DNA of 64,000 bases from NCBI GenBank assembly GCA_040220855.1, contig JAVJVZ010000076.1, positions 26,220-90,219 of the forward strand. The letters are read 5' to 3'. The DNA comes from Gammaproteobacteria bacterium (lineage in GTDB: Bacteria > Pseudomonadota > Gammaproteobacteria > Ga0077536). Below are positions 7,779-33,311 of this stretch, piece by piece. Position numbers and translations under genes: made by a program. Position 1 is the stretch's first letter; each line of letters begins with the position of its first letter. The notes beneath the pieces were generated by a model. That model was not told the DNA's origin and did not search any database. It saw nothing but the letters and a program-made list of their open reading frames with translations.

Positions 7779-7816
7779 GTTAACACTCGTTGACAGCCGT
7801 TGACAGCGTGTAACAG
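7779..7816 (+). promoter_or_regulatory. Tandem GTT(G/A)ACA(G/C) repeat / TTGACAG-CGTGT-AACAG motif upstream of the PEP-CTERM gene
   Basis: Sequence seen directly: gttaacac-tc-gttgacag-cc-gttgacag-cgtgtaacag, about 90 nt upstream of the 7904 start. A near-identical motif occurs at 33288-33311. Confidence 0.45.
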
Positions 7817-7903
7817 CGCGTCGCCGTAGAGTCGCCCCATCACGCCGCTGCGGCCAGGCGACCGAGCCGGCAGCGCGACCGAATTCGAAACAGGAACCAA
7901 CCC

Positions 7904-8731
7904 ATGAATCCACGACTTTCCGCTCTGCTCGCTGCCTGCGGCATCGCTTACGGTGGACAGGCCGCGGCCTATCTGATCGACGACGGCGCCGGCGCGGCGG
8001 CGTCGCGCTACCACGGGGGCGACGGCCACGGCTATGGTGACGTCATCGGTGCACCGGCCAAGTTCGACATCCGCGGCGCCGACATCTCGCTCAACGGCAG
8101 CATGCTGACCGTCGACATCTACACCAACCTGGTCGGTAACGCCGGGGTGTTCGCGCCCTACACCGCGCACGGCAAGGGCATCGGCTACGGCGATCTCTTC
8201 CTCGCCAGCAGCTGGAACCCGTTCGGCGTGCCGAACTACGACCAGGACAATCACGCCAACGGCACGGTCTGGGAGTACGCGCTGTCGCTCGATGGCGATC
8301 GTTGGTCGAATGCCGACTACGCGAACTCGGCCACGCTCTACGCGCTCAGCGGCTCGAATGACGCCAGTGCACTGCTCTCCGAGGATCTCATGCAGGGCAA
8401 CGCGGTCTGGCGTGACGGCCAGGAAGTGCTCGTCGACCGCACCGCGCAGAGCATCTCGTCCGTCGGCAGCGGCAATTACAGCGTCTCGGCAGCCGACGAC
8501 CGCATCCGTTACGTCGTCGACATCAGCGGCACCGACCTGTGGTGGAAGCCCGGGCAGACCGAACTCACCATCGCCATGCACTGGGCGATGGACTGCGCCA
8601 ACGACGTCATCGAGGGCGCCGCGATCTTCTTCGACCCGCCGCCCAACACCAGCGTGCCGGAGCCGGCTTCGCTCGGCCTCGCGCTGCTCGGCATCGCGGG
8701 CATGGGGCGTGTGCGCCGCCGGCGCGGCTGA
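7904..8731 (+). CDS. PEP-CTERM sorting-domain secreted protein (exosortase substrate)
   Basis: N-terminal signal peptide. C-terminus ...VPEPASLGLALLGIAGMGRVRRRRG is the canonical PEP motif, then a TM helix, then an Arg cluster. Confidence 0.8.
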   Translation: MNPRLSALLAACGIAYGGQAAAYLIDDGAGAAASRYHGGDGHGYGDVIGAPAKFDIRGADISLNGSMLTVDIYTNLVGNAGVFAPYTAHGKGIGYGDLFLASSWNPFGVPNYDQDNHANGTVWEYALSLDGDRWSNADYANSATLYALSGSNDASALLSEDLMQGNAVWRDGQEVLVDRTAQSISSVGSGNYSVSAADDRIRYVVDISGTDLWWKPGQTELTIAMHWAMDCANDVIEGAAIFFDPPPNTSVPEPASLGLALLGIAGMGRVRRRRG

Positions 8732-8754
8732 GACGCCAGGCACATCACTACCCG

Positions 8755-8784
8755 GACGCCGGCACCCGCCGGCGTCTTCATTTG
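8755..8784 (+). terminator. candidate intrinsic terminator after the PEP-CTERM gene
   Basis: gacgccggc-accc-gccggcgtc hairpin (9-bp stem) followed by ttcatttg. Confidence 0.45.
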
Positions 8785-8848
8785 CAGCGCGCGCAGCGCG
8801 TGCCCATCTCGCGGGTATACTCCTGCGCTCACATGGGGAGGGGCAGGC

Positions 8849-9820
8849 GTGACGCAGGCGATCGTGTTGCACGCACATGGTGGACCGGAGCAGCTCCGCG
8901 CTGCGAGGGTGGAAGTCGGCGCACCGGGCGCGGGCGAAGTGCGCCTGCGCCACACCGGTATCGGCGTCAATTTCGTCGATACCTATTTTCGCCGCGGCCT
9001 CTACCCGGTCGAACTACCCGCCATCATCGGTGACCAGGCCTGCGGCGTGGTGGAGGCGGTCGGGCCCGGCGTGGACGGCCTCGCGGTCGGCGACGCTGTC
9101 GCCTATGCGTCGTGCCCGGGCGCCTATGCCGCCACGCGTATCGCCCCGGCAGCACAGCTGGTTCGCGTACCCGCCGGCGTCGACGCGATGCTGGTTGCAT
9201 CCAGCCTCACGCGCGGCATGACCGCCGAATACCTGCTGTTCCGTCTCCACGCACTCGCGCGCGGGGAGAGCTGCCTGGTCTACGCGGCGGCGGGCGGCAC
9301 CGGCCGCCTGCTCTGCCAATGGGCGCGGCATCTCGGTGCCACCGTCATTGCGGCGGTCGGCGCTGCCAACCGGGTTGCAACCGCGCACGAGGCCGGTGCC
9401 CACCACGTGCTGCTGAACGACGACGCCGACTTCGCCGCGCGCGTGCGCGCGTGGAGCGGCGGGCGCGGTGTCGATGTCGTCTACGACTCGGTCGGCCGCG
9501 ACACCTTCACCCAGTCGCTCGCCTGCCTGCGCCCGCGCGGCCTGATGGTCGCCTACGGCAATGCCTCGGGCGCGCCGGAGCCCTGCGAGGTACTCGCCCT
9601 GGCGCGCCACGGCTCGCTGTTCCTGACGCGTCCGCGCCTGCCCGACTACGTCGCCGATCGCAGCGAGCTGGAACACTGCGCGGGGCGATACTTCGATGCG
9701 CTCGCCGCGGGCGTCGTGCGCCCCAACGCGATTGAACGCTACGCGCTGGCCGACGCGGCGGCGGCACACCTGCACCTCGAGGATCGCGAACGGCTGACCA
9801 CGCCGGTGCTGGTACCCTGA
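8849..9820 (+). CDS. qor: NADPH:quinone oxidoreductase (Qor), zinc-free medium-chain dehydrogenase/reductase (MDR) family
   Basis: 323 aa, VYAAAGGTG Rossmann motif, zeta-crystallin-like. GTG start 5 nt after a GGGGAGGGG RBS. Confidence 0.8.
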   Translation: MTQAIVLHAHGGPEQLRAARVEVGAPGAGEVRLRHTGIGVNFVDTYFRRGLYPVELPAIIGDQACGVVEAVGPGVDGLAVGDAVAYASCPGAYAATRIAPAAQLVRVPAGVDAMLVASSLTRGMTAEYLLFRLHALARGESCLVYAAAGGTGRLLCQWARHLGATVIAAVGAANRVATAHEAGAHHVLLNDDADFAARVRAWSGGRGVDVVYDSVGRDTFTQSLACLRPRGLMVAYGNASGAPEPCEVLALARHGSLFLTRPRLPDYVADRSELEHCAGRYFDALAAGVVRPNAIERYALADAAAAHLHLEDRERLTTPVLVP

Positions 9821-9937
9821 GACGAACGGTGTGACGCGGCGGCGCGGTGCGGCCGCCAGCGCGCGGAGCGTGAGCACACGGCGGTCGGGGGCACACGCGG
9901 CGAGGCCATCAACGCGCCAGGGAGGGAAGGGAAGATC

Positions 9938-11029
9938 ATGAAGCTCAGCTATTTCACGATGCCGTTGCATCCGCCCGGGCGCGATTGGCGCGAGACCCTC
10001 GACGAGGACCGCGCGGCTGTCCTGCTCGCCGACCGCCTCGGCTACCACGAAGCCTTCGTCGGCGAGCACGTCACTGATCGCGCAGAGACCGTGACGTCGT
10101 GCCTGATGTTCCTCGCCAGCCTCGCCTACGAGACGGGAGCCATCCGTCTCGGCAGCGGCACCGTCAACCTGCCGAACAGCCACCCCGCGGCGGTTGCCGC
10201 CCAGGTCGCGATGCTCGACCACATGCTTGCCGGGCGCTTCGTGTTCGGCATCAGCCCGGGCGGGCTGCGTTCCGATGCCGAGGTGTTCGGCAACCTCGAT
10301 CGCGATCGCCGCGCGATGTTCGACGAGGCCATCGAGCAGGTGCTCGCGATCTGGAGTGGCGAGCCGCCCTACGAACTCGACGGCGAGTTCTGGACGGTGA
10401 GCACGCGGCGCACGCTCGATCTTGCGATCGGCCAGGGGGCGATTCTCGGCCCCTACCAGCGCCCGCACCCGCCGATCATGGTCGCCTGCATGTCGCCGTT
10501 CTCGGATTCGGTGGCCAACGCGGCGCAGCGCGGCTGGTCGATCGTGTCGGCCAACTTCCTGCAGCCGGTATGGGTGAAGAGCCATCGCGACAAGCTCGCG
10601 GAGGGCTGGGCGGACGGTGGACATACGCCGAATCCGGCCGACTGGCGCGTCGCGCGCAGCATCTTCGTCGCCGACGACGCGCACACCGCGCGCACTTATG
10701 CGATGGAACCCGATGGCGCGTATGGCAATTACTATCGCAGCCTGATGCACAAGCTCATCGGCAACGGGCGACCCGACCTGTTCAAGACCCGCCGTGACAT
10801 GGCCGACGCCGAGGTCACCCACGATTTCGTCATGCGCTCGCTGGTCATTCACGGCACACCGGCGCAGGTCGCCGAGCAGATCGTCGCACTGCGCGAGACC
10901 GTCGGCGAGTTTGGTACGCTGGTTTATGCTGGTCACGACTGGGTCGATGGCGCCCTCGCGCGGCGTTCGATGGAACTGATGGCGACCGAGGTGATGCCGG
11001 CGGTCAACCGCGCGCTCGGCGAGGCCTGA
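9938..11029 (+). CDS. LLM-class flavin-dependent oxidoreductase
   Basis: 363 aa luciferase-like monooxygenase. GGGAGGGAAGGGAAG RBS then ATG. Confidence 0.8.
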   Translation: MKLSYFTMPLHPPGRDWRETLDEDRAAVLLADRLGYHEAFVGEHVTDRAETVTSCLMFLASLAYETGAIRLGSGTVNLPNSHPAAVAAQVAMLDHMLAGRFVFGISPGGLRSDAEVFGNLDRDRRAMFDEAIEQVLAIWSGEPPYELDGEFWTVSTRRTLDLAIGQGAILGPYQRPHPPIMVACMSPFSDSVANAAQRGWSIVSANFLQPVWVKSHRDKLAEGWADGGHTPNPADWRVARSIFVADDAHTARTYAMEPDGAYGNYYRSLMHKLIGNGRPDLFKTRRDMADAEVTHDFVMRSLVIHGTPAQVAEQIVALRETVGEFGTLVYAGHDWVDGALARRSMELMATEVMPAVNRALGEA

Positions 11030-11060
11030 GCCGCGCAACGTACAGCGAGGAGGCTTTCCC

Positions 11061-11849
11061 ATGAGTATCGTCGAGACCCGCACCATCGCGCTGAATATCA
11101 CCGTCGAAGGCCCGGCTGACGCGCCGGCCATCGTCTTCTCCAACTCGCTCGGCGCGAATCTCTCCATGTGGGAGCCGCAGGCCGCGCACTTTCGCGAGCG
11201 TTTCCGCGTGGTTCGCTACGATCAGCGCGGGCACGGCCTGAGCGAGGTGCCGCAAGGTCCTTACAGCTTCACCGGGCTGGTCGAGGACGTGGTCGCGCTG
11301 GCTGATGCGCTGGGGCTCGAGCGCTTCCATTTCGTCGGTCTCTCGATGGGCGGCATGACTGCGCTCGGACTCGCGCTGACCTATCCGCAGCGCTTGTTGT
11401 CGGTGACGCCGGCGAATTGCGTGGCCGGCTTTGGCGCCGACGCACGGCGTAACTGGGAGGAGCGCATCGCGACCGTCACCCAGGGCGGCCTCGAGCCGCT
11501 GCTCGAATCCACCCTCGAGCGTTGGTTCACCGCGCCGACGCGCGCGGCGCGCCCGGCGCAGATGCAGGCAGTGCGCGAGATGGTCGCGGCGACGCCGGTG
11601 CAGGGTTATGTCGGCTGCTGCGGTGCGCTCGAAGGGCTCGACTATGACGGTCGCCTCGAAGCGATCACCACGCCGACGCTGTTCATCGCCGGCAGCGAGG
11701 ACCCGAGCACGACCGCCAGCGCGATGCGTGCGATGCACGCGCGCGTTGCCGGATCACGCTACGTCGAACTGCCCGCCGCGCACGTCTCCAACCTCGAGTG
11801 TCCGGACGCCTTCAACGACGCCCTCGACGACTTCTTCGCCACCCTGTGA
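11061..11849 (+). CDS. 3-oxoadipate enol-lactonase-like alpha/beta hydrolase
   Basis: 262 aa, GLSMGG nucleophile motif, PcaD-like length and layout. GAGGAGG RBS. Confidence 0.75.
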   Translation: MSIVETRTIALNITVEGPADAPAIVFSNSLGANLSMWEPQAAHFRERFRVVRYDQRGHGLSEVPQGPYSFTGLVEDVVALADALGLERFHFVGLSMGGMTALGLALTYPQRLLSVTPANCVAGFGADARRNWEERIATVTQGGLEPLLESTLERWFTAPTRAARPAQMQAVREMVAATPVQGYVGCCGALEGLDYDGRLEAITTPTLFIAGSEDPSTTASAMRAMHARVAGSRYVELPAAHVSNLECPDAFNDALDDFFATL

Positions 11850-11868
11850 GCGGCGCGGGTAGCGTGCC

Positions 11869-12822
11869 GTGAGCGCCGCCGCCGCGCACCCGCTGGTCCT
11901 GCATCACTACGATTTCTCCAACTACTCGGAGAAGGTGCGCCTGGTGCTCGGCCTGAAGGGGCTCGCGTGGCGCTCGGTGACGATCCCGGCATGGGCGCCG
12001 AAGCCATCCTATACGCCGCTGACGGCCGGATATCGGCGTACCCCGGCATTGCAGATCGGTGCCGATGTCTATTGCGACACGCAGCTCATCGTCGAGATGC
12101 TCGAGACGTTGGCGCCGGCGCCGACGCTGTGGCCGGGAGCGGACGTCGCGCAGGCGCGTGCGCTCAACGCCGCGCTCGTGTACTGGGCCGAGACGAGCCT
12201 GTGCCGGCCGCTTGCGCTGTACATCACCGGGCGCCACGCGGCGCGCTTCCCGCCCGCGTTCCATGCCGACCGCGCGCGCCTGCACGGCCGCCCCGAGCCG
12301 GGCTTGGCCCAGGTCGAAGCCTCTGCAGCCAAGTACGCGGCGCAGGTCGGCCCGCAGCTCGCGCAACTCGAAGCGCTGCTCGGCGACGGCCGCCCGTGGG
12401 TGTTCGGCGAAGCGCCCGCGCTGGCCGACTTCGCGCTCTACGAGGCGCCGTGGTTCCTGCGCACCATCGGCGGTGACGCGGCGTTGCCCGAGGGTCTGCC
12501 GCGCCTGCGCGCGTGGATGACACGTGTCGCCGCCTGCGGTCACGGTGACGTCTCCGCGTTCGATGCGGACGCGGCGCTCGCGCTGGCGCGTGCCGCGTCA
12601 CCACTGGCGTGCGCGCCGAGTACCGACTACGCCGCGCCCGAGGGCGTGCGCGCCGGCGACGTCGTGGTCGTACGCCCGCTCGACGAGGAGGCCCCGGCAC
12701 GGGGGCGCCTCGTCGCCATCGACGAGGCGCGCATCGTGATCGCCGCGAGCAGTGCTGCCGCCGGCGAAGTCCACGTGCACTTCCCGCGGCTAGGCTACCG
12801 CGTCGGCCACGTGCGCGCCTGA
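11869..12822 (+). CDS. glutathione S-transferase family protein
   Basis: N-terminal thioredoxin-like GST_N (LVLHHYDFSNYSEKVRL...) plus a C-terminal helical domain. GTG start. Last gene of the Qor/LLM/hydrolase operon. Confidence 0.6.
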   Translation: MSAAAAHPLVLHHYDFSNYSEKVRLVLGLKGLAWRSVTIPAWAPKPSYTPLTAGYRRTPALQIGADVYCDTQLIVEMLETLAPAPTLWPGADVAQARALNAALVYWAETSLCRPLALYITGRHAARFPPAFHADRARLHGRPEPGLAQVEASAAKYAAQVGPQLAQLEALLGDGRPWVFGEAPALADFALYEAPWFLRTIGGDAALPEGLPRLRAWMTRVAACGHGDVSAFDADAALALARAASPLACAPSTDYAAPEGVRAGDVVVVRPLDEEAPARGRLVAIDEARIVIAASSAAAGEVHVHFPRLGYRVGHVRA

Positions 12823-12834
12823 GCGCTGTCGCAC

Positions 12835-13470
12835 TCAACGCTTATCGAGGATTACGCGGTAGAACTTGGTGAAGACCATTTCCTCGGTAGCGTTGGCGGC
12901 GTGACAGGCGGCGCAAGCCTCTGCCGGTGCGGGGGCGGCCGTCTCGGCATAGGGCGGCGCATGGTGACCGAAGTTGAAGAAGCCCCAGCCGTTGGTTTCC
13001 GCAAAGCGCCGACTGTCCTTGACAGCGACGTCGATGCCGTTCGGATCGCCCGGGAAATAGCCTCGCCCGGAGGCTTCGACGGTAGAGCCGTCGCTGGCGT
13101 TACCGGGGCGCACCAGCTGCAGTTCCTTGAGCAACACGGTGCCCTCGGCGAACGAGCCGGTGTTGCGATACGCCTCGAGGGCGTGACGCTGGATGTACAC
13201 GTTGTGGAACTCCGGAAACCCGGCCGCGCCGCCGTTCAATGCATTCGGTGTGAGCGGGGCACCGAGAAAAACCCATTCGCGGTAGTTGCGCGGCAGCTCG
13301 AGGTGGCCTTCTGCTGTCCAACGTGGTGCGTCGTCGGGCTCTGCCGCGAAGACGGCTTGCGCTGGAGTGCAAAGTAGCGAGACGGCCAGGGTGGTCGCGC
13401 GGGCAACCGCCTGCGCGATGGCTGGGGCAGTCGCACGGACCGGTGGCAAATCGAGGGGAAGGCGAGGCAT
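12835..13470 (-). CDS. cytochrome P460 family protein (periplasmic, c-type heme)
   Basis: 211 aa with signal peptide. Single C-terminal CAACH heme-binding motif in the P460 position. AAGGAGA RBS. Confidence 0.7.
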   Translation of the reverse strand: MPRLPLDLPPVRATAPAIAQAVARATTLAVSLLCTPAQAVFAAEPDDAPRWTAEGHLELPRNYREWVFLGAPLTPNALNGGAAGFPEFHNVYIQRHALEAYRNTGSFAEGTVLLKELQLVRPGNASDGSTVEASGRGYFPGDPNGIDVAVKDSRRFAETNGWGFFNFGHHAPPYAETAAPAPAEACAACHAANATEEMVFTKFYRVILDKR

Positions 13471-13590
13471 GTCTGTTCTCCTTCTGGATGGAATAGTCGC
13501 CGCGGGTGATGCAAGGACAACAGCAGATTCGCACTTCTTGATAGACTTTATGCAACGATAAGTCGCATATATGGTGCAGAAGGTATCAGG

Positions 13591-14409
13591 ATGGACGATC
13601 GACTCGTGGCCTTGCTGCGTCGCTTCGAGCTGACCGCAGAGGTCTTGCAATGCGGCCCTCTGCGGCGCCCTGCGCGTCACAACGCCGTGGCGGTGTACGT
13701 GCATCTCGTGCGCACCGGGCGCGTCGCACTGCGTGGGCCGGGGCGCTATCGACGCCGTGTCGACGGTCCTTGCGTGGTGCTGCTGCCGCGCGGCGGACCA
13801 CACATGCTCGAAGCCACCGATGCCGCGCCCGCGATCGTCAGTATTGCGCTGGACTTCGGCTTGCGCGTGCGCAACCCACTGACAGTGGCTGTGCCTGCGT
13901 TGGTCGTCGTCCCCCTTGCGCTCGACGACAGTCTCGGCGTGGCCACCGAGCTGCTCTACCGTGAGGGTATTGAGCAGCACTGCGGACGCCAGGCCGTGAT
14001 TGATCGCCTCGGCGAGGTTGTCCTAGTGTTGCTGCTACGCCACCTGATGGATACCGGGCAGGTACGCACCGGGGTCCTTGCCGGGCTCGCCGATGCGCGC
14101 TTGATGAAGGCACTCAACGCGATGCACGAGGACCCGGCCGAGGATTGGTCGCTGGCGCGCCTGGCCGCCGTTGCCGGCATGTCGCGAGCACGCTTCGCCA
14201 GTCATTTTCGCGCGACCGTAGGACAGACTCCGGGCGCCTATCTCACCGATTGGCGTTTGAGCCTGGCGCAATCGCTGCTGCGTGCGGGGCAGCCGGTGAA
14301 CGTTGTGGCGGATGCGGTAGGGTACGAGGCGGCTTCGGCCTTCGCGCGTGTGTTCAGCCAGCGGATCGGCCTCGCGCCGACCGCGTGGCTACGCCAACAG
14401 CGCGCCTGA
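13591..14409 (+). CDS. AraC family transcriptional regulator
   Basis: C-terminal AraC-type double HTH (ARLAAVAGMSRARFASHFRATVGQTPGAYLTDWRL...). Divergent from the P460 gene. Confidence 0.8.
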   Translation: MDDRLVALLRRFELTAEVLQCGPLRRPARHNAVAVYVHLVRTGRVALRGPGRYRRRVDGPCVVLLPRGGPHMLEATDAAPAIVSIALDFGLRVRNPLTVAVPALVVVPLALDDSLGVATELLYREGIEQHCGRQAVIDRLGEVVLVLLLRHLMDTGQVRTGVLAGLADARLMKALNAMHEDPAEDWSLARLAAVAGMSRARFASHFRATVGQTPGAYLTDWRLSLAQSLLRAGQPVNVVADAVGYEAASAFARVFSQRIGLAPTAWLRQQRA

Positions 14410-14452
14410 GCGTCGTACCGCCACCACGTCGGTGGCGAGAGATAATGCAGTG

Positions 14453-16474
14453 ATGATGCGGGAGTTCGCCCCCACCGCCCTGCTTGCCGGCATTGCTGCA
14501 GTTGCGTTTGCGGCGGCCGCCGACATGCCCGGCGACGCCGCCGTGACGAGCAGTCGTATCGTTCGCGCGGGTTTCGTGTTCGAGGACGTCGCGCTGAGGT
14601 TCGACTGGACCGACATCACGCGCCCCGCGCTCGAACTGCGTGCTGCCCGTGTCGTGCTGCCCGGGCCGCTCGGCGAGCTGAACGCGCTCGAATTGCATTG
14701 CCCCGCACTCGTAATCAGCGCGCCGCGTCTACGCTGTGCTGCGGGCACGCTCGAAGCGCGCCACGCGGACGTTGGTGCAGTGAACGCGTCGATCACGTTC
14801 GAGTACACCCCCGATGGTGCGCTGCGCCTGACGGCATCGACCTCGGCTGTGGTCGGCGGCACCCTCGACGCCGAACTGCGCAGCGATGGCGACGGCATTC
14901 ATCTCGCCGTCCGTGGACGTGAGCTCGCGCTCGGCGGTGCGGTCGACGCGACACTGGCCAGTCTCGACGTCGACCTGCGCCAGCCGGCCGCGCCACATGC
15001 CGCGTGGCAGGCCGACGCGCGTTTCGCCGGCCTCGGCTTCAGCAATCCCAGTGGAACACTCGCCGGCGAGGCGCTCGATGGCAGGCTGACACTGACCGCG
15101 CGGGCGGCGCCGGATGGACACAGCTGGGCAGGCCGCGCGCGCATCGTGCTGACGCAGGGCGGTGCCTACGCCGAACCGGTCTACCTCGACCTCGCGCGCT
15201 TCCCGGTGACGGTGGTGAGCGACTATCGCTTCGCCGACCCACGGTTCGAACTCACGCAGCTCGATTTCGAGCAGCCGGGCGTGCTCGAGATCGCGGGCCA
15301 CGCGCTCGACTTCGTCGACGGTGCCCTGGTCACGGCCGATGTCGCGGTGGAGTCGATGCGTTTCCCCGCCGCCTACGATGCCTGGCTCGCCGGCTACCTC
15401 GTAGGCACGCCGTTCGCGCGACTGGACATTGCCGGCAGCCTGAGCGGGCGCGTGCGCATGGAGGCGGGTGCTCTGAGTGCGATCGACGTCGCGCTCGATG
15501 CGCTGGATCTCGAGGACCGTGACGGCCGTCTCGCACTGTACGGCCTCGACGGTGAAGTCCACTGGGCAGCAGACGGCACCGATCTCGCGGCCAGTGTGCT
15601 CGGGCTCGAGGGCGGCTTCTTCTATGGCGCCGGTTTCGATGCTACCGAGTTCGTGCTCGGCATCGCCGGTGCGGCCATCGACCTGCTCGAGCCGGCGCGC
15701 ATCCCGCTGCTCGGCGGCGCGCTGACCATCGAGCAGTTCTCGCTGCGCGACTACGGCAGCGACGAGCTCGCGCTCGGGCTCGAGGCGGCGCTCGAGCCGA
15801 TCGATCTCGGGCAGCTGACACTGGCGCTCGACTGGCCGGCCTTCGCCGGCACGCTGTCCGGCCGCCTGCCGTTGCTGAGCTACCGTGATGGCGTGGTCAC
15901 GCTCGGTGGTGATCTCGAGGCGCGCGCCTTCGACGGCGACATCACCATCGGTGGCCTGCGTATCGCACGTCCGCTCGGCCTGGTGCCGGAGATCGAGGCC
16001 GACATCCGCATGCGTAACCTCGATCTCGCGCAGATCACCGAGGTCGTCCCGTTTGGCCGCATCACCGGCCGGCTGGACGCCGACATCGACAACCTCCGCA
16101 TGCTCAAGGGCGAGCCGGTACGCTTCGACGCGCGCTTCCGCACGCCCGCCGACGACGATTCGCGCCACCTGCTCAGCCAACGCGCGGTCGATACCATCTC
16201 GCGCGTCGCCGGCGGTGGGGGCGCGGTGTTGTCGACGACCTTCCTGCGCGTGTTCGAGAACTTCGCCTACGAGCGGCTGGGCATATCCTGCCGGCTCGAG
16301 AACGACGTCTGCCACATGGATGGCATCGAGCCGGCCGACGACGGTTACTACATCGTCAAGGGGGCCTGGCTGCCGCGCGTGGACCTGATTGGCCGCGTCC
16401 ACCGCGTCCACTGGTCGCGCCTGATGGCGCAGCTCGAGCAGGCACTCGCCGAGGGCGAATTCAGGATCGAGTGA
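14453..16474 (+). CDS. YdbH / AsmA-like large envelope protein (N-terminal anchor, repetitive beta-rich region)
   Basis: 673 aa with an N-terminal hydrophobic segment and a long low-complexity body. The C-terminal region (…VDLIGRVHRVHWSRLMAQLEQ) resembles the YdbH family. Family call is from memory. Confidence 0.5.
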   Translation: MMREFAPTALLAGIAAVAFAAAADMPGDAAVTSSRIVRAGFVFEDVALRFDWTDITRPALELRAARVVLPGPLGELNALELHCPALVISAPRLRCAAGTLEARHADVGAVNASITFEYTPDGALRLTASTSAVVGGTLDAELRSDGDGIHLAVRGRELALGGAVDATLASLDVDLRQPAAPHAAWQADARFAGLGFSNPSGTLAGEALDGRLTLTARAAPDGHSWAGRARIVLTQGGAYAEPVYLDLARFPVTVVSDYRFADPRFELTQLDFEQPGVLEIAGHALDFVDGALVTADVAVESMRFPAAYDAWLAGYLVGTPFARLDIAGSLSGRVRMEAGALSAIDVALDALDLEDRDGRLALYGLDGEVHWAADGTDLAASVLGLEGGFFYGAGFDATEFVLGIAGAAIDLLEPARIPLLGGALTIEQFSLRDYGSDELALGLEAALEPIDLGQLTLALDWPAFAGTLSGRLPLLSYRDGVVTLGGDLEARAFDGDITIGGLRIARPLGLVPEIEADIRMRNLDLAQITEVVPFGRITGRLDADIDNLRMLKGEPVRFDARFRTPADDDSRHLLSQRAVDTISRVAGGGGAVLSTTFLRVFENFAYERLGISCRLENDVCHMDGIEPADDGYYIVKGAWLPRVDLIGRVHRVHWSRLMAQLEQALAEGEFRIE

Positions 16475-16526
16475 CGACTGCCGACACCGGCGCCGGCGCG
16501 CGCACCGTGTGCGGCCACGTCCTCGC

Positions 16527-22115: not shown

Positions 22116-22121
22116 GCGGAG

Positions 22122-24212: not shown

Positions 24213-24331
24213 ATCGGCCGCGGTGTGCGCGCGGGCATGACGCAGCGCTGCACGACGTGCGAAGATCGCCACGCCGCCAGCGTCCACGGGCGCCGGCGAA
24301 GTTCCGTCAGTTTCGCAGGAGTATCCTTATC

Positions 24332-24904
24332 GTGAGCACGCATCGCGTCGTCGTTCTCCGTTTCCTGGTCTTGCTGTGCGCCTTGCATGCACTCGCCGGC
24401 TGCGCGCCGCTGACCGCCACGGGCGCCGCCATCTCCGGCGATCGCCGCACCACTGGAACGGTCATCGACGACGAGCAGATCGAGAGCAAGGCGAACAAGT
24501 TCTTTGCCGCCGATGCCGAGCTCGCGCAGTCGTGCCACATCAACGTGACGAGCTACAACCAGCAGGTGCTGCTGACCGGCGAGTGTCCGACCGAGCAGCT
24601 CCGCGCGAAGGCCGCCGATTACACCGGCCGAGTCGCCAAGGTGCGCCACATCTTCAACGAGATCGCGCTCGACGCGCCGAGCCCCCTGGGCTCGCGCACG
24701 AACGACGGCCTCATCACCACCCGCGTGCGCGCCAAGCTGCTGACCATTGCAGACCTTCCCGAATCGAACATCAAGGTCGTTACCGAGGCCGGGGTGGTCT
24801 ACTTGATGGGTTTGGTCGACGCACAGTCCGGTAACGTCGCTGCCGAGGCGGCCAGTACGATCGGGGGCGTCGCCAAGGTGGTCAAGCTGTTCGAGCATCC
24901 CTGA
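24332..24904 (+). CDS. BON-domain outer-membrane lipoprotein (DolP/YraP/OsmY-like)
   Basis: GTG start 9 nt after AGGAG. Lipobox LAGC. Two BON repeats (…VTSYNQQVLLTGEC…, …VVTEAGVVYLMGLV…). Confidence 0.7.
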   Translation: MSTHRVVVLRFLVLLCALHALAGCAPLTATGAAISGDRRTTGTVIDDEQIESKANKFFAADAELAQSCHINVTSYNQQVLLTGECPTEQLRAKAADYTGRVAKVRHIFNEIALDAPSPLGSRTNDGLITTRVRAKLLTIADLPESNIKVVTEAGVVYLMGLVDAQSGNVAAEAASTIGGVAKVVKLFEHP

Positions 24905-24921
24905 GGCCGGCTGCACTGCGG

Positions 24922-26115: not shown

Positions 26116-26263
26116 TGACGGCGGGAAGACCGACCGGCGGCGCCGCGGAAAACGCCCTGAATGGGCGATGAAAAACTCCCGCGTGGCGGTTGCCGCTTCC
26201 GTGCACCGCGGCGCAGCGCGAGAATGCCGGGAGACCGCACCGACCTTATTCACACGCGCCTGT

Positions 26264-26296
26264 GCGGCCGGCGAGCGCTTGCCGGCCGCAATTTTC
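26264..26296 (+). terminator. intrinsic terminator after the aminotransferase gene
   Basis: gcggccgg-(10 nt loop)-ccggccgc hairpin followed by aattttc. Confidence 0.55.
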
Positions 26297-26314
26297 TATC
26301 GCCCCGCGAGCATG

Positions 26315-27262
26315 CTAGAAGCTGATACGCCCGATGACGTCGAGGATATGCTCGCGGTCCTCGGCGAATTGCGGTGAGATCATGATTTCCTCGCCGATGC
26401 GCGCCGGGTCCTCGTCGACTGCCCAACCCTGCGGTTTGCTCACCGTCGCCTCGAACAGCGCCCCACCGGGCGTGCGCACGTAGACGGAATCGAAGTAGCC
26501 GCGATCCTTGACGTCGGAGACGTCGGTATAGCCGAGCCCCTCGACGTAGGCCTTGTACTCGCGTTGGAGTTCGAGGTCGGCGATGTCGAACGCACAGTGG
26601 TGCACGGTGCCTTCTGCGAAGGTCCAGGTGCCCTGGTGGCGATCGGGTTCAGCGGTGACGTCGATCAACGTACCGCTGCCGCCGCGGCCCATGGCGAAAC
26701 GCACGGTGGCGCCGTCGTCTTCGACGCGCCGGCAGCTCCACGCCTCGAGTACGAAATCGTCCATCACGTCGCGATCGCGCACGGCGACCTCGATACCGTG
26801 CATGCCATGGATGGCGGTCTCGCGCGGCACCCCGCCCTGGTCCCAGCCACGGCGGGGGTCGTCGGCAACCTCGACCAGCGCATACGGGATACCGCAGGGA
26901 TGCGCGAAAGCGAGGCGACGCTCACCCAGGCATTCGTATTCGCGATTGTCGATGCCCTGCGCCGCCAGGCGCTCGCGCCACCAGGTCAGCGAGCCGCTCG
27001 GCACGGCGAGCAGCAGGGTGGCGATCTGGTTGGCGCCGCGACGTCCCAGGCGACCGGTGTGGCGCATCGGGAAGGTGGTGACGATCGAACTCGGGGCGCC
27101 GTCGGCGTTGGCGTAGTAGAAATGGTAGATGGGCACCTTGCCGTCGTAGAGCAGTGTCTTCTTCACGCTGCGCAGACCGAGTGTCCGCGTGTGGAAGTCG
27201 TAATCCTCCTGTGCGTCGCCCGTGCACAGGGTGATGTGATGCAGGCAATTCAGCTCGTTCAT
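26315..27262 (-). CDS. two-domain VOC (glyoxalase/extradiol-dioxygenase fold) protein
   Basis: 315 aa with duplicated VOC modules (HHITLC… / …HHCAFD…). GGAGGAGG RBS. Confidence 0.7.
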   Translation of the reverse strand: MNELNCLHHITLCTGDAQEDYDFHTRTLGLRSVKKTLLYDGKVPIYHFYYANADGAPSSIVTTFPMRHTGRLGRRGANQIATLLLAVPSGSLTWWRERLAAQGIDNREYECLGERRLAFAHPCGIPYALVEVADDPRRGWDQGGVPRETAIHGMHGIEVAVRDRDVMDDFVLEAWSCRRVEDDGATVRFAMGRGGSGTLIDVTAEPDRHQGTWTFAEGTVHHCAFDIADLELQREYKAYVEGLGYTDVSDVKDRGYFDSVYVRTPGGALFEATVSKPQGWAVDEDPARIGEEIMISPQFAEDREHILDVIGRISF

Positions 27263-27352
27263 GGGACCTCCTCCGACCGGCACGGCACCGCGGCAGACTC
27301 GGCGCGGCGGGCGGTCCGCGCCATGGTAACCCTTCGCGCGCGGCGCGGCGCG

Positions 27353-28507
27353 TCAGGGGCGCGGCGACCACCCGCTGTCGATGGCGCGCGCGATGACGAG
27401 GTGCTGGATGTCGTTGGTGCCCTCGTAGATGCTCAGCACGCGGGCGTCGCGGTAGAGCTTCTCGACCGGGCAGTCGCGCAGGTAACCCTGCCCACCATGA
27501 ACCTGCAACGCCGCCGAGGTGACTGCCTCGGCCATCGCGCTGGCCTCGGCCTTGGCCATCGAGGCCTCCACCGCGGCGTCGGCACCGGCGTCGACGCGCG
27601 CCGCCGCGGCCAGGGTGAGGGCGCGCGCGGCGGCGAGCCGGCTGGCCATGCGGGCCAGGCGGAAACCGACCGCCTGGTGGCGCACGATCGGCTGGCCGAA
27701 GGTGGTGCGCTCGCGCGCATAGGCGATGGCGTGCTCGAGCGCGGCGCGCGCGACGCCGAGCGCCTGTGCGGCCACGCCGATGCGGCCGCCATTGAGATAG
27801 GAGAGGGCGATGCGCAAGCCTGCGCCGGGCGCGCCGAGGAGGTGTTCGTTGCCGACTTCGACGCCGTCCAGCGCGACCTCGCAGGTGTCGCAGTTGCGGT
27901 GACCGAGCTTGTCCTCGACGCGCAGCACGCGGTAGCCGGGCGTGTCCGTGGGAACCAGGAAGGCCGAGATGCCACGCTTGCCGGCGGCCGGGTCGCTCAC
28001 GGCGACGACCAGCGCGAGCTGCGCGCTGCGACCCGCGGTCACGAAGCGCTTGACGCCATCGAGGCGCCAGCCGCCGCTCGTGCGAACGGCGCGCGTGCGC
28101 ACAGCGGCGGCATCGGAGCCGGCCGCGGCTTCGGTCAGCATGAAGCAGCCGCGCAGGCGGCCGGCCGCGAGCGGGGCGAGCCAGTTTGTGTGCTGCGCCG
28201 GTGTCCCGTGCTCGACGAGCGCCGCGCACACCGGCGAATTGCTGACGTTGACGAGATTGGTCAGCCCGCAGTCGCCGGCGGCGAGTTCCTCGGTGACGCG
28301 TGCATAGGACGTCATGTCGAGGCCGCTGCCGCCGAGCGCGCGGGGTGTCAGCAGGCCGAAGTAACCCAGCGCAGCGAGACGCTCGAGCAGCGCCGTGGGT
28401 ACGCCCGTTCCGGTGGTTTCCCAGGTGCCGGCATGCGGCGCTATCTCGCGCGCGACGAAATCGCGCGTGGCGTCGATGAGCTGGCGCTGTTCGGTACTCG
28501 GAAGCAT
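27353..28507 (-). CDS. acyl-CoA dehydrogenase
   Basis: 384 aa; ACAD N-terminal, middle and C-terminal domains (…YEGTNDIQ… catalytic-base region near the C-terminus). Confidence 0.85.
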   Translation of the reverse strand: MLPSTEQRQLIDATRDFVAREIAPHAGTWETTGTGVPTALLERLAALGYFGLLTPRALGGSGLDMTSYARVTEELAAGDCGLTNLVNVSNSPVCAALVEHGTPAQHTNWLAPLAAGRLRGCFMLTEAAAGSDAAAVRTRAVRTSGGWRLDGVKRFVTAGRSAQLALVVAVSDPAAGKRGISAFLVPTDTPGYRVLRVEDKLGHRNCDTCEVALDGVEVGNEHLLGAPGAGLRIALSYLNGGRIGVAAQALGVARAALEHAIAYARERTTFGQPIVRHQAVGFRLARMASRLAAARALTLAAAARVDAGADAAVEASMAKAEASAMAEAVTSAALQVHGGQGYLRDCPVEKLYRDARVLSIYEGTNDIQHLVIARAIDSGWSPRP

Positions 28508-28596
28508 GCTGACGACCCCGAAAGGACGGCTGCACCGTGCTGGTGAACGAATCCCGGCGCAGCGGCCACGGAGCGCCGCCGCCGCGCGGCACCGGT

Positions 28597-29067
28597 TCAG
28601 CGCACGATGGTCACCGGGCAGGGGGCGTGGTTGACGACCGCGTTGCTCACGCTGCCGAGCAGGACGCGCTTGAGACCCGAGCGGCCGTGCGAGCCGATCA
28701 CGACGAGGTCGACCTGCTCGTCTTCCGCGAAGCGGCAGACCTCCTCGGCGGCGTGGCCCCAACGCTGGACCAGGGTCGGCGGCGCGGCCAGCTCGCCGAG
28801 AGCGGCGGCGGTTTCCGGCAGCTCCTTCTCGGCGGCGCGCGACTCGATCAGCTGGCGGATCTCGTCGACCGACATCGCGCCCCACGGTGACGCGGCGGGA
28901 TACTCGCCCGCTCCCCAGGCGTGGGGCATGATGAGTTCCTCGCTCTGCACCATGAGCACGCTGACGCGGGCGCCGAGCCCGCGAGCGAGCTCGCCGGCCA
29001 CGCCGGCCGCCTTGCGCGAACCTTCGGAGCCGTCGGTGGCGACGAGCACGTGCTTGATTCGGGTCAT
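28597..29067 (-). CDS. universal stress protein (UspA family)
   Basis: 156 aa; …VVIGSHGRSGLKRVLLGSVSNAVVNHAPCPVTIV ATP-binding C-terminus. GAGAGGA RBS. Confidence 0.8.
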   Translation of the reverse strand: MTRIKHVLVATDGSEGSRKAAGVAGELARGLGARVSVLMVQSEELIMPHAWGAGEYPAASPWGAMSVDEIRQLIESRAAEKELPETAAALGELAAPPTLVQRWGHAAEEVCRFAEDEQVDLVVIGSHGRSGLKRVLLGSVSNAVVNHAPCPVTIVR

Positions 29068-29165
29068 CGTTGTTCCTCTCGTGCGATGGGAGCAGGCGCC
29101 GTGTGTGCGCCTGCGTGGAGTATCGATTGTACGACCGGGGCGCGTCGCGGCGGTTCCGGCCCGGA

Positions 29166-30065
29166 TCAGCTCGAGGTGCGATCGAGGGGCAGCGCGGCGA
29201 GCGCAGCGGCGAACTGCATGTCGAGTGGTTGCTCCAGGGTGTCGGCGGACAGGGCGTCGAGCACTTCGCCGAGACGTCGTTCGAGCAGCAGTTGCAGGCG
29301 GTAGCGCGCGCGCGCGGCGAGCCGTCCGGCGCGGTCCGCGTGCTCGTCGAGCCAAGCCTGGTGGGCGTCGATGGCTGCCGAGAGCGCGCTGATGGAGTCG
29401 CCATCGTGGATCGAAGTCAGCACCACCGGGGCCTGCCAGCCGTCATGGGCGGCGCGCAGCGCCTGTACGCGACGGATTTCGGCGGCGAGCTGGGCGGCAC
29501 CGGCGAGCTCGCTCTTGTTGACGACGTAGATGTCGGCAAGCTCCATGGTGCCGGCCTTCATCGCCTGCACCGTATCGCCAGCGCCCGGCATCAGCACCAG
29601 GGCAAGGGTGTCGACCTGGCTGCGGACCGCGTGTTCGGCCTGGCCGACGCCGACCGTCTCGAGCAGCAGTTCCTCGAAGCCGGCCGCGGCCAGCGCTTCG
29701 AGCAGTTCGGGGAGATTGTCGGCGAGGCCGTCACTGTGTGCGCGCGAGGCGATCGAGCGCAGGTAGAGATTCTCGGCACCGGCGAGTTCGTCGAGGCGGA
29801 TGCGGTCGCCGAGGATGGCGCCGCCGGTGAGCGGGCTCGACGGGTCGACCGCCAGCATGCCGATGCGGTGGTGCGCCGCGCGCAGCAGCGCGAGGCGTCC
29901 GGCGAGACTGCTCTTGCCGACGCCGGGGGCGCCGGTGAGACCGATGCGCGGAACCGTCGCCGGCGTCGCCGGCGCCAATGCCAGCACGTCGGCGACGCTC
30001 GCATCGGCGAGCTGGCCGAGACGCCGGGCCAACGCGCGGCGGTCGAGCGTCGCATCGCCGGCCAT
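29166..30065 (-). CDS. meaB: methylmalonyl-CoA-mutase-associated G3E GTPase (MeaB/ArgK)
   Basis: P-loop GAPGVGKSS, then switch and NKxD (VVNKSEL) motifs. Confidence 0.85.
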   Translation of the reverse strand: MAGDATLDRRALARRLGQLADASVADVLALAPATPATVPRIGLTGAPGVGKSSLAGRLALLRAAHHRIGMLAVDPSSPLTGGAILGDRIRLDELAGAENLYLRSIASRAHSDGLADNLPELLEALAAAGFEELLLETVGVGQAEHAVRSQVDTLALVLMPGAGDTVQAMKAGTMELADIYVVNKSELAGAAQLAAEIRRVQALRAAHDGWQAPVVLTSIHDGDSISALSAAIDAHQAWLDEHADRAGRLAARARYRLQLLLERRLGEVLDALSADTLEQPLDMQFAAALAALPLDRTSS

Positions 30066-30068
30066 GAC

Positions 30069-30509
30069 TCAGGCGAGCGCGGCGCCGAGGGCGGCGACGA
30101 CGTCTGCGAGCGGCTGGTCGCTGGTGTAGATGCCGCGCACGCCGAGTGCGCTGAGCGCGGCATGGTCCTCCGCCGGCACGGTGCCGCCGACGAACAACGC
30201 GATGTCGTCGGCGTTCTCTGCACGCAGACACTCGACGACCTGTGCGACCAGCTCGCGATGGCTGCCGGAAAGGATCGACAGGCCGACGGCGTCGACGCCT
30301 TCGTCGATCGCGACGCGCGCGATCTGCTGCGGACTCTTGCGCAGGCCGGTGTAGATGACTTCAGCGCCGGCGTCGCGCAGCGCGAGCGCGACCACCTTGG
30401 CGCCGATGTCGTGGCCGTCGAGGCCCGGCTTGGCGACGAGAATGCGTTTGCCGCGCAGTGGCGCCGCACCGTTGCCGGCAGCGGCGTTCGAAGTCGTGGG
30501 GGTGCTCAT
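30069..30509 (-). CDS. acyl-CoA mutase small subunit, cobalamin-binding domain
   Basis: B12-binding DxHxxG (GLDGHDIGAKVV) Rossmann-like domain, 146 aa. ATGA overlap with the large-subunit stop. Confidence 0.85.
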   Translation of the reverse strand: MSTPTTSNAAAGNGAAPLRGKRILVAKPGLDGHDIGAKVVALALRDAGAEVIYTGLRKSPQQIARVAIDEGVDAVGLSILSGSHRELVAQVVECLRAENADDIALFVGGTVPAEDHAALSALGVRGIYTSDQPLADVVAALGAALA

Positions 30510-32110
30510 AGTCTCACCGGCTCCTGGAATTCGCCCCATTCGGCTTTCAGTTGCGTGACCATCTCGCCGACCGTGACGTAGGCGTGGCAGCAGTCGACCA
30601 GGTAGGGCATGAGGTTCTCGTCGTCGCGCGCGGCGGCACGGCCGAGCGCGGCGAGGCTGCGCTCGACCGCGGCAGCATCGCGGGTGTCGCGGATACGTTC
30701 GTATTTCTCGATCACGCGCGCGGCGGCATTCGGATCGACCTGGAACGTCTCGCCGATACCGCGGGTGGCGTCGTCACGCGCGAAGAAGTTCTGCCCGACG
30801 ATGACACTTTCACCGCGGTCAACCTTCTGCTTGCGCTCGAGCGCGCGCTCGGCGATGCGCATCTGCAGCCAGCCGTCCTCGATCGCTTTCTCGACGCCGC
30901 CGTAGTCGTCGATCTCGCGCATCACGGCGCCGATCGCGTCCTCGGTCTGGTTGGTCAGGTGCTCGACGAGATAGCTGCCACCGAGCGCGTCGACGCTGCG
31001 TGCGATGCCGCTCTCGTAGGCGAGAATCTGCTGCGTGCGCAGGGCGAGTTCGGCCGAGCTCTCGGTCGGGATCTGGAAGGCCTCGTCGTAGGCACAGGTG
31101 AAGATCGACTGGGCACCGCCGAAGACCGCTGCCATCGTCTCGACCGTGACGCGCACCACGTTGTTCATCGGTTGCGGTGCGACCAGCGAGGAACCGCCAC
31201 AGACCACGCCGAAGCGGAACATCAGCGCTTTCTCGTCCGTCACCCCGTAACGATCCTGCAGCAGCTTCGCCCACAGGCGGCGCCCGGCGCGGAACTTGGC
31301 GATCTCCTCGAAGAAATCCTGGTGCACGTAGAAGAAGAACGACAGGCGGCGCGCGAACCTGGCCACGTCACCGCCGCGCCGGCGCAGCTCGTCCACGTAG
31401 GCAAGGCCGTTGGCGAGCGTGTAGGCCATCTCCTCGACGGCGGTCGCGCCGGCATCGCGCACGTGGGCGCCGGCGATGCTGATCGGGTTGAAGCGCGGCG
31501 TGACCTCGTTGGCGTAGAGGATGGTGTCGGCAATGAGGCGCATCGAAGGGCGCACCGGGAAGATCCAGGTCCCGCGCGCGACGTACTCCTTGAGGATGTC
31601 GTTCTGGATGGTTCCGGTCAGCTTCTCACGCGGTACGCCGAGCTTGTCGGCAGTGGCGAGGTACATGGCGTAGATGATCGCCGCCGTGCCGTTGATCGTG
31701 AAGGAGGTCGAGATGGCGCCGAGATCGATGCCGTCGAAGAGGATCTCCATTTCGGCGAGGTTGGACAGCGACACGCCGACCTTGCCAACCTCGGGCCGCG
31801 CCATCGGATCGTCCGGGTCGTAGCCGCACTGGGTGGGCAGGTCGAGCGCCACCGAGAGGCCTGTCTGGCCCTGCTCGAGCAGGAAGCGGTAGCGCGCGTT
31901 GGTGTCCTCGGCGGTGCCGAAGCCGGAGTACTGGCGGATGGTCCACAGGCGGCCCTGGTAGCCGTCGGCAAAGATGCCGCGGGTGAATGGCGGGGCACCG
32001 GGCGTACCGATCCGATCGGGATCGAGGAGCTCGGGGCCGGCGGTGACCGGTATTTCGAGACCGGCCATGGTGCGTGTCCCGAGCGTCGGCCGGGGGCGGG
32101 TACTGCTCAT
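30506..32110 (-). CDS. methylmalonyl-CoA-mutase-family large (catalytic) subunit, split type
   Basis: 534 aa TIM-barrel substrate domain (…[40 protein letters not shown]…[16 protein letters not shown]…) without a fused B12 domain. Confidence 0.9.
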
Positions 32111-32198
32111 GCGAGACTCTCCTGCGCGCGTGCGCGTGGGGCCGGCGGCCGGGCCGCCGGGCGTTGACTGTGAGCGTCGATTGACTGCTGCGTCGCGC

Positions 32199-32960
32199 TC
32201 ATGTCGCGAGTGCCGCGCCGAGTTCCTCGATCGCGGTGGCGAGCGCGGTCACGTGTGCGGCGAGGGCATCCTGCATGCGCGGCAGCGGGCCGGCCACGGC
32301 GACGCCGAACAGGGCCTGGCCGAATGCGAGCGGGGCCGCCACGGCCATCACGTCGGCGACGTTCTCACCGCGCGTCAGGTAGTGACCACGGGCGCGCGAA
32401 CGCACGAGATCGGCGCAGAGGGTGTCGGCACTGGTGAGGGTCTGGTCGGTGACGGCCACCAGCGGGTGGGCGGCAAGCCAGGTGGCCAGTGCCGCATCGT
32501 CGAGCGCACCGAGCATGACCTTGCCGATGGCGCTCGAGTGCAGTGGTTTGCTGGCACCGGCGCGCGCCGAGTAGCGAATCGACCGGGCACTCTCGAGCAC
32601 CAGGAGGTACTGCACCACGTCGCGCTGGCGCGTGCCGAGAATGACCGTCTCGCCGGTCTCGTCGCGCAGTCGCGCGAGGCGTGGCTCGAGCCGCCGCGCG
32701 AGCGGGTCGTGGGCGCGAATGGTGTCGGCCAGATCGCCCAGCCGACGCGTCGGGTAGATGCCGCGACCCTCGAGCTGGCACAAGTAGCCTGCCTCTTCGA
32801 GCGTGCGCAGCGCGGCATGGCAGGTCGAGACGGGCAGACACGCGGCACGCGCGAGCTCGGACAGCGACAACGGTCGACGGTGCGTTTCGAAGGCTTCGAA
32901 GATGTCGAGCGCGCGGCGCGTCGAGCGCCCACGGGGCGTGCTGTCGATGGTGGTGCTCAT
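32199..32960 (-). CDS. IclR family transcriptional regulator
   Basis: N-terminal wHTH (LSLSELARAACLPVSTCHAALRTLEEAGY) plus a C-terminal IclR effector domain. Confidence 0.85.
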   Translation of the reverse strand: MSTTIDSTPRGRSTRRALDIFEAFETHRRPLSLSELARAACLPVSTCHAALRTLEEAGYLCQLEGRGIYPTRRLGDLADTIRAHDPLARRLEPRLARLRDETGETVILGTRQRDVVQYLLVLESARSIRYSARAGASKPLHSSAIGKVMLGALDDAALATWLAAHPLVAVTDQTLTSADTLCADLVRSRARGHYLTRGENVADVMAVAAPLAFGQALFGVAVAGPLPRMQDALAAHVTALATAIEELGAALAT

Positions 32961-33287
32961 GGTCGTTCGCGCGGCATTGGCTGATGTTCATGTTTCCAAA
33001 TATAGAAAATCATTTCTATCATGTGAAAGCGTCATCATGGAAGGCTACGCTCAAGCACCGCCCGGATGAGCGGCCGGCACCCACGTCGCCGTCGTGCTTG
33101 CACTCGTCGCAAACACCTGCGCCGACGACCTGTCGATCGGGCGGCCGGCGGTGACGCCGAGGCACGGCGTCTGCGTGTCAAGCCGACTGACAGTGGACCG
33201 CTGCGTGCGCAGTGCAGCAAAGCCATTGATTGCTTGGGGAAAACTGCGCGGCGAGGGAGAACTCGCAGGGCGCTGGTGTCAGCGGAT

Positions 33288-33311
33288 TTGACAGTCGTGT
33301 GACAGGTCGTG
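33288..33311 (+). promoter_or_regulatory. Tandem TTGACAGTCGTG / TGACAGGTCGTG repeat upstream of the VPLPA-CTERM gene
   Basis: Seen directly. Shares the TTGACAG-[T]CGTGT-[A/G]ACAG core with 7779-7816. Confidence 0.45.

Follow-up and report, generated by a model that had tools for sequence, protein, structure and literature searches.

Two exosortase-substrate genes of a gammaproteobacterium probably use different promoter designs that share the half-site T(T/G)ACA

This analysis concerns a stretch of 64,000 nucleotides (nt) from Gammaproteobacteria bacterium (lineage Ga0077536; GenBank assembly GCA_040220855.1, contig JAVJVZ010000076.1, positions 26,220 to 90,219), referred to below as the window, and the regions located upstream of two of its genes that encode predicted exosortase substrates. 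These genes, named here gene 1 (7904-8731, + strand) and gene 2 (33478-34053, + strand), are each preceded by a copy of a short motif, TTGACAG(N0-1)CGTGT(A/G)ACAG, which the initial annotation interpreted as one common cis-regulatory element. Detailed inspection of both occurrences (site 1, upstream of gene 1; site 2, upstream of gene 2) leads us to consider it probable that they represent two different promoter designs, which happen to share the half-site T(T/G)ACA.

Gene 1 encodes a PEP-CTERM protein of 275 amino acids (aa), which has a signal peptide and ends in a VPEP...RRRRG tail. Its sorting signal, first proposed from the tail, was recognised by the model TIGR02595 (20.7 bits; cut-off 16), and a protein identical to the gene-1 product (P0001) is recorded as 'PEP-CTERM sorting domain-containing protein' in a gammaproteobacterial metagenome-assembled genome. 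Gene 2 encodes a 191-aa protein of the DVUA0089 family (NF038127, 35.4 bits; cut-off 29), whose start is set by the sequence AAGGAAT-N-ATG, conserved across the orthologues. The C-terminus of this protein (...APVPLPAPLVLLGSAVALFAVRRRDA) reads VPLPA, a hydrophobic stretch and RRR, and these are kept in its homologues; the VPLPA-CTERM model TIGR03370 (cut-off 25.35 bits) did not report the protein even at E <= 10. A regular-expression scan of all reading frames of the window revealed no further exosortase-type tails.

Both sites are located, as had been claimed, in the promoter regions of single exosortase-substrate genes. Gene 1 is followed by a hairpin (GACGCCGGC-accc-GCCGGCGTC, then TTCATTTG; 8755-8784, + strand), which was read directly from the sequence and was not called by the terminator scan. 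This hairpin is tentatively regarded as a likely terminator, which would leave gene 1 as a one-gene unit. On the other side of the gene, the open reading frame at 6210-7625 (- strand) probably represents two genes, as in the orthologues, encoding a lipase/esterase (~311 aa) and a DUF1330 protein (93 aa; 7199-7588). As a result of this split, the non-coding region before gene 1 is ~315-420 nt long, depending on the DUF1330 start codon used.

The bases and coordinates of both copies of the motif proved exact (TTGACAGCGTGTAACAG, 7800-7816, and TTGACAGTCGTGTGACAG, 33288-33305, both on the + strand), as did the additional GTTNACA copies of site 1, which lie within 7779-7805. Site 1 (7780-7816) reads ttaacactcg ttgacagccg ttgacagcgt gtaacag, and site 2 (33288-33311) reads ttgacagtcgtgtgacaggtcgtg. 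Other parts of the original description held only in part. The core pattern does match just two places in the window, but the comparison of these two matches with the zero expected is circular, as the pattern was built from the same two sites. The copies had also been described as near-identical, whereas they share only 7 + 5 + 4 exact bases, separated by one indel and one mismatch. When the two upstream regions were compared by unbiased local alignment with dinucleotide shuffles, the observed score was reached by 167/500, 219/1000, 733/1000 and 44/1000 shuffles under four scoring schemes, and by 106 of 416 real 300-nt windows; the similarity of the regions is therefore not clearly better than that of the shuffles.

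The repeated structure of the sites is a separate matter. Tandem Repeats Finder (TRF) reported a period of 10 bp with 3.1 copies at site 1 (7777-7807) and a period of 12 bp with 2.0 copies at site 2 (33289-33311). The direct repeat TGACA-N5-6-TGACA is present in the window at the two sites only, in both cases on the strand of the genes (~0.05 expected; two or more occurrences in 0/100 shuffles), and its occurrence at the two sites is non-random. The motif is not a dispersed repeat resembling the repetitive extragenic palindromes, an explanation the initial annotation had itself named: there are two copies in the 64 kb, and none further in 906 kb of related loci outside the gene-1 promoter. No Rfam family matched anywhere in the window.

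A regulatory region of known type is relevant to site 2. According to Haft et al. (2006, BMC Biol 4:29, PMC1569441), proteobacterial PEP-CTERM genes are mostly single-gene units preceded by long non-coding regions, in which a 17-nt motif 1 (3′ end TTTACA; repeated in some cases) is followed, after a spacer of 62.8 +/- 10.6 nt, by the sigma-54 -24/-12 motif 2, which is placed on average 71 nt (range 23-221) from the start codon. The same paper ties the motif to PrsK, PrsT and the NtrC-type activator PrsR, with which it co-occurs (PMC1569441), and dependence on RpoN has been shown for a PEP-CTERM gene in Aquincola (PMC9850573). The initial annotation stated that no such element was annotated; at site 2, that statement was mistaken, as the motif 1/sigma-54 region upstream of PEP-CTERM genes had already been published (PMC1569441).

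Motif 1 was rebuilt from 80 loci, using a genome scan together with an alignment of gene-1 homologues, and start codons were called; 79 loci were usable. A good sigma-54 box was located 48-176 nt 5′ of the ATG in 62/79 loci, and 47 of these 62 contained the sequence TGTCG-N6-TTTACA 5′ of the box, most often at a distance of 63 nt from it. The weight matrix was then scored over 128,000 positions of the window. Its second-ranking match (13.2 bits; 33276-33294, + strand) corresponds to a proximal copy of motif 1 at site 2 (TGTCAGCGGATTTGACA; 33277-33293, + strand), a predicted PrsR site which matches the consensus TGTCG-N6-TTTACA rebuilt from the 47 sites, while the third (10.5 bits; 33175-33193, - strand) corresponds to a distal copy (TGTCAGTCGGCTTGACA; 33176-33192, - strand), which forms a perfect TGTCA-N7-TGACA palindrome. 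The distance between the two copies is 101 bp, centre to centre. The top score (14.0 bits; TCGTCGAAAGCCTGTACAC, 49315-49333, + strand) falls within a spermidine-synthase gene (49302-50168), with no sigma-54 box near; this match is taken as chance and marks the false-positive level of the matrix.

The proximal copy of motif 1 is followed by a perfect TGGC-N7-TTGC sigma-54 -24/-12 box (TGGCCTGGAATTTGC; 33358-33372, + strand), the only intergenic one in the window, which is placed 64 nt 3′ of motif 1 and 105 nt 5′ of the gene-2 ATG. Both features are conserved in the two syntenic orthologous loci, L004 and L005, in which the gene is likewise situated between an upstream IclR-family gene and a downstream dinB. 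The counterparts are TGTCAGGCGGCTTTACA (L004) and TGTCCATGGAATTGACA (L005) for motif 1, and TGGCGCGGATTTTGC (L004) and TGGCCTTGCACTTGC (L005) for the sigma-54 box, and the spacer measures 63, 63 and 64 nt across the three genomes (64 nt here). The distal copy of motif 1 is only partially conserved in L004. Distant homologues of gene 2 (L006, L216 and L217) were without a clear motif 1 and sigma-54 box at the correct spacing, and the assignment of gene 2 to the regulon is thus based on this genome and two close orthologues.

Judged by its sequence, site 2 is an example of the published PEP-CTERM regulon design. It resembles the region described in 2006 in containing (i) two copies of the 17-nt motif with its T(T/G)ACA 3′ end, (ii) a spacer of 64 nt (within the range of 32-92 nt), (iii) a -24 GG/-12 GC box at a distance from the start codon within the range of 23-221 nt, and (iv) a long non-coding region before a single exosortase-substrate gene. 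It differs in that it is a high-G+C variant, with TGTCA...TTGACA in place of TGTCG...TTTACA (both substitutions are also found in L048, L050, L060 and L088), and in that gene 2 encodes a VPLPA-type rather than a PEP tail. Site 1 lies outside this class altogether, as it lacks both sequence features. The suggested relevance of PrsK/PrsR control is accordingly upheld by the enhancer and sigma-54 anatomy of site 2, but not at site 1, where motif 1 and the sigma-54 box are both missing.

The final 6 nt of the proximal motif 1 (TTGACA) are the opening 6 nt of the motif noted earlier. Its second half originates from a tandem unit (TGACAGTCGTG/TGACAGGTCGTG; 33289-33311, + strand), the period-12 repeat reported by TRF. 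This second half (GTCGTGTGACAG, 33294-33305) is absent from the orthologous promoters of L004 and L005, and an additional TNACA at +10 or +11 was found in none of 39 well-matched motif-1 sites of other genomes. As read here, the earlier-noted motif at site 2 is composed of the last six bases of the predicted enhancer and an 11-12-nt tandem unit peculiar to this genome. The extra TGACAG unit beside the enhancer may be a product of chance or slippage (~1% by a rough estimate, given the TGACA already there), or alternatively may constitute a real second input.

In the proposed mechanism, predicted PrsR dimers would occupy both 17-nt enhancer copies (here TGTCA-N6-TTGACA) and activate the sigma-54 holoenzyme at 33358-33372 through DNA looping. 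The anatomy and conservation of site 2 are directly visible in the compared sequences, and from these we infer PrsR binding and a transcription start of gene 2, predicted at ~33383-33386. The papers searched for experimental PrsR binding contained no electrophoretic mobility shift assay or footprint.

The loci L015-L088 provided two further observations on promoters of the sigma-54 type. Their motif-1-to-sigma-54 spacers fall into classes approximately one helical turn apart (50-53, 61-64, 73-75, 86 and 94-97 nt; mode 63 nt), which fits a face-of-the-helix constraint on looping between enhancer and promoter. Many of them also contain an A+T-rich box ~15-35 nt 5′ of the -24 element (e.g. aACTGAAAAata, aTTGAAAAtaa and cACTGTTTctaaaca), with a counterpart in the window at 33322-33346 (CTCGAAAACCGTTTATGTTCAATAG). 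It may be a site for IHF or for DNA bending.

The promoter region of gene 1 is organised differently. Site 1 contains four half-sites T(G/A)ACA (TAACA, TGACA, TGACA and TAACA, at 7781, 7791, 7801 and 7811; 7779-7816, + strand), which follow one another with an exact 10-bp period, read directly from the sequence, in the arrangement GTTAACA ctc GTTGACA gcc GTTGACA gcgt GTAACAG. They are followed by a -10-like hexamer, TAGAGT (7827-7832, + strand), placed 21 nt 3′ of the proximal TTGACA and 71 nt 5′ of the ATG. No GG-N10-GC box is present between 7817 and 7903, and a sigma-54 box is missing too in the nearest relatives (L009-L014). The 17-mers of site 1 ending in the TTGACA copies at 7795 and 7805 scored -3.9 and -9.2 bits, respectively, with the motif-1 matrix, ranked below 860th, and lack the left half TGTCG. 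A standard scan for sigma-70 promoters with spacers of 16-18 nt gave none at site 1, which argues against TTGACA being an ordinary -35 hexamer here; the TTGACA copies are situated 4-5 bp too far upstream for such a role.

Several other promoter types were considered for site 1 and rejected. A sigma-54 box located further upstream (CGGGTAGTGCGCATTGC; ~7733-7749) has N11 instead of N10 spacing, is broken by an indel when compared with the orthologues, and is unconserved. The consensus sequences of sigma-28, sigma-32, extracytoplasmic function (ECF) and HrpL promoters were compared by eye, and none fits the conserved positions or spacings. A MerR-type long-spacer promoter does not fit either, as 21-22 nt is too long and the spacer contains no inverted repeat.

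The arrangement found at site 1 recurs in related genomes. We aligned the promoters of three syntenic gene-1 orthologues (75-80% protein identity), of which that of L003 contains four repeat copies and those of L001 and L002 contain two (TGACAaatgtTGACA); all three retain GCCGTAGAGT or GCCGTAGATT. With the addition of homologues of ~50% identity (L012, L013, L014, L214, L212 and L209), ten promoters from about five lineages were available, and these were aligned using the -10-like hexamer as the anchor. TNACA-N5-TNACA is present in all ten, in two to four phased copies each. In 9 of the 10, the proximal half-site is followed at a distance of 21-22 nt by a hexamer TA(G/A)nnT (variants TAGAGT, TAGATT, TAGGCT, TAGTCT and TAAGCT), which is separated from the ATG by 48-75 nt. 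Repeats and hexamer together form a composite pattern that was found 12 times in the 906 kb scanned, each time before this gene. The upstream gene of L209 and L212 has the same direction as the downstream one, which argues against the repeats serving a divergent gene.

The majority of this gene family (62/79) has promoters of the sigma-54 type, and the clade of gene 1 appears to have exchanged the enhancer/sigma-54 design for direct repeats with a sigma-70-type -10 hexamer. If TAGAGT acts as the -10 element, transcription of gene 1 would start at ~7838-7841, and the repeats would extend from approximately -60 to -24 in this genome, and from approximately -50 to -34 in the relatives with two copies. 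A candidate activator that recognises direct repeats, for which a winged-helix response regulator of the OmpR/PhoB class is the most plausible type, would bind head-to-tail along a single helical face and recruit sigma-70 RNA polymerase to a promoter that has no -35 element. It is less likely that the repeats serve a repressor, or that they are plain tandem -35 hexamers. The claim of one common cis-regulatory element at the two genes is not borne out by this comparison, in which site 2 appears as a 17-nt enhancer TGTC(G/A)-N6-TT(T/G)ACA with a sigma-54 promoter, and site 1 as a set of direct repeats in 10-bp phase, accompanied by a sigma-70-type -10 hexamer but not by a sigma-54 box.

Direct repeats with a period of 10-11 bp, located beside promoters that have a -10 but no -35 element, are a hallmark of the operators of OmpR/PhoB-family regulators. 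Examples are the F and C boxes of OmpR, with (G/T)nnACA half-sites, the RstA box TACA-N6-TACA, the CpxR box GTAAA-N5-GTAAA, the four decameric boxes of TorR and the TT(A/T/C)ACA repeats of Bacillus PhoP. Site 1 resembles these operators in that two to four half-sites, each with an ACA core, are arranged head-to-tail with a 10-bp period and oriented toward the gene, and in the position of the repeats, which is that expected of a -35 element, with a recognisable -10-like hexamer. It differs from them in that the conserved proximal half-site ends 21-22 nt, and not 10-12 nt, before the hexamer; a further repeat copy at the 10-nt position is present in this genome and in L003 only. No regulator gene is linked to the gene-1 locus in any relative examined, and no PrsK, PrsR, PrsT, exosortase or OmpR-type gene adjoins the orthologues.

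Some of the results weigh against this explanation of the two sites. The restriction of TGACA-N5-6-TGACA to the two sites hints that the extra half-site of site 2 is not due to chance, and a common factor may therefore be involved. In L014 the spacer between the proximal half-site and the hexamer is 32 nt, and the putative -10 role of the hexamer was assigned from conservation alone. The activator of site 1 is hypothetical, in its existence as well as its identity. Genes for PrsR, PrsK, PrsT, an exosortase or an OmpR-type regulator were not found in the 64-kb window, and the mechanism proposed for site 2 assumes that this genome encodes PrsR.

A common factor could act in two ways. A single protein, PrsR or another, might bind the shared TTGACAG-CGTGT-RACAG at both genes and co-regulate them, which would agree with the confinement of the direct repeat to the two sites of the 64 kb, on the strand of the genes (0.05 expected), and with the identity of the spacer bases CGTG; moreover, the distance from motif 1 to the sigma-54 box of site 2 has been maintained (63, 63 and 64 nt), so that no net insertion accompanied the gain of the extra half-site. 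We nevertheless regard this as unlikely. The repeats differ in period (10 bp at site 1 versus 11-12 bp at site 2), the second half-site of site 2 is missing in both orthologues and in 39 other motif-1 sites, and site 2 has no TA(G/A)nnT 20-23 nt downstream, so that the composite pattern of site 1 does not match there. Site 1, in turn, is not recognised by the motif-1 matrix and lacks a sigma-54 box, and the alignment of the two regions does not clearly exceed the shuffles. It is equally unlikely, in our opinion, that one direct-repeat-binding regulator, independent of PrsR/sigma-54, acts on both genes. Such a protein would activate gene 1, where the repeats would have replaced the enhancer/sigma-54 promoter in one gammaproteobacterial clade, and would compete or cooperate with PrsR at gene 2 by means of the newly arisen repeat copy.

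Other explanations dispense with a dedicated factor, or invoke a familiar one. TTGACA is the -35 consensus, and GTTGACA-N3-GTTGACA followed 20-23 nt on by TAGNNT is found in many unrelated metagenome contigs, mostly of low G+C content (among the matches listed), which would suit a role of the TTGACA copies of site 1 as ordinary sigma-70 -35 hexamers of tandem or alternative promoters. This is quite unlikely, given that the sole conserved -10-like hexamer is located 21-22 nt from the nearest TTGACA, beyond the usual 16-18 nt, that no promoter with the usual spacer was found, and that both the 10-bp phase and the ACA core persist where the TTGACA sequence diverges (TCACA and ACACA in L209 and L212). 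Binding of PhoB to the opposite strand (CTGTCA-N4/5-CTGTCA), which would place both genes in the phosphate regulon, seems very improbable. The E. coli Pho box is CTGTCAT-N4-CTGTCAT, and the reverse complement of site 2 (CTGTCACACGACTGTCAA), with its 11-bp period, fits 12 of the 14 conserved positions of this consensus; the pentamer TGTCA/TGACA is shared with the Pho box. However, the orientation is opposite to that of the downstream genes, the period at site 1 is strictly 10 bp in all relatives, the spacers are G+C-rich rather than A+T-rich, and the site-2 copy is unconserved, with no -10 hexamer 10 bp away. Finally, the tandem copies might be neutral, functionless products of replication slippage, in favour of which it can be said that each site is a short tandem repeat and that the copy at site 2 is lineage-specific. 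For the motif as a whole, this too has very little to recommend it: the array of site 1 stays in phase across about five independent lineages, in intergenic DNA which is otherwise unalignable and with differing spacer bases. The extra unit at site 2 is the only part for which slippage is plausible.

Regulation of PEP-CTERM/exosortase substrates is, to our knowledge, so far known only as the PrsK/PrsR system with sigma-54, and it bears on the formation of flocs and biofilms. If the two sites do represent separate designs, site 1 would be a concrete, conserved example of a second upstream class, and of a clean promoter replacement inside one gene family. Many PEP-CTERM genes have upstream regions outside the motif-1 class, and further motif classes were expected (Haft et al. 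2006, PMC1569441). The two classes can be searched for with the patterns TGTCG-N6-TTTACA, ~63 nt, TGGC-N7-TTGC (class one) and TNACA-N5-TNACA, 21-22 nt, TA(G/A)nnT (class two). The novelty is modest: the sites are mostly explained by a known system together with a promoter variant confined to one clade, and represent no new kind of system.

The metagenome scan with GTTGACA-N3-GTTGACA-N20-23-TAGNNT gave at least 120 matches; those listed were mostly of low G+C content and unrelated. No exosortase-type gene follows the pattern among the matches listed, which is no evidence of absence. In four unrelated metagenome loci (L130, L132, L136 and L188), a GTTGACA-NNN unit is repeated exactly in tandem, with three to five copies (e.g. 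GTTGACAGAG x4 and GTTGACATAT x4), and phased TTGACA arrays thus exist in quite different organisms.

Within the window, the divergent IclR-family gene upstream of gene 2 (32199-32960, - strand) is preceded by an A+T-rich inverted repeat (TTTCCAAATATAGAAA/TTTCTATCATGTGAAA; 32993-33028), overlapping a sigma-70-like promoter TTCACA-17-TATATT (- strand, 33027 to 32999). The core of the repeat is kept in L004 and L005, and it is therefore probably the operator of the IclR regulator itself. Three long reading frames with a coding-type G+C content at third codon positions gave no Pfam match: 14348-16474 (+ strand, 708 aa), 45413-46840 (+ strand, 475 aa) and 61392-62909 (- strand, 505 aa). Beyond dinB (34157-35392), a gene encoding a PAS-GGDEF-EAL protein (35427-37679, - strand) adjoins that of a histidine kinase (37582-38979, - strand); no link of this pair to the motif was found. 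The same neighbours are present in L004, where the orthologue of the PAS-GGDEF-EAL protein contains an additional receiver domain.

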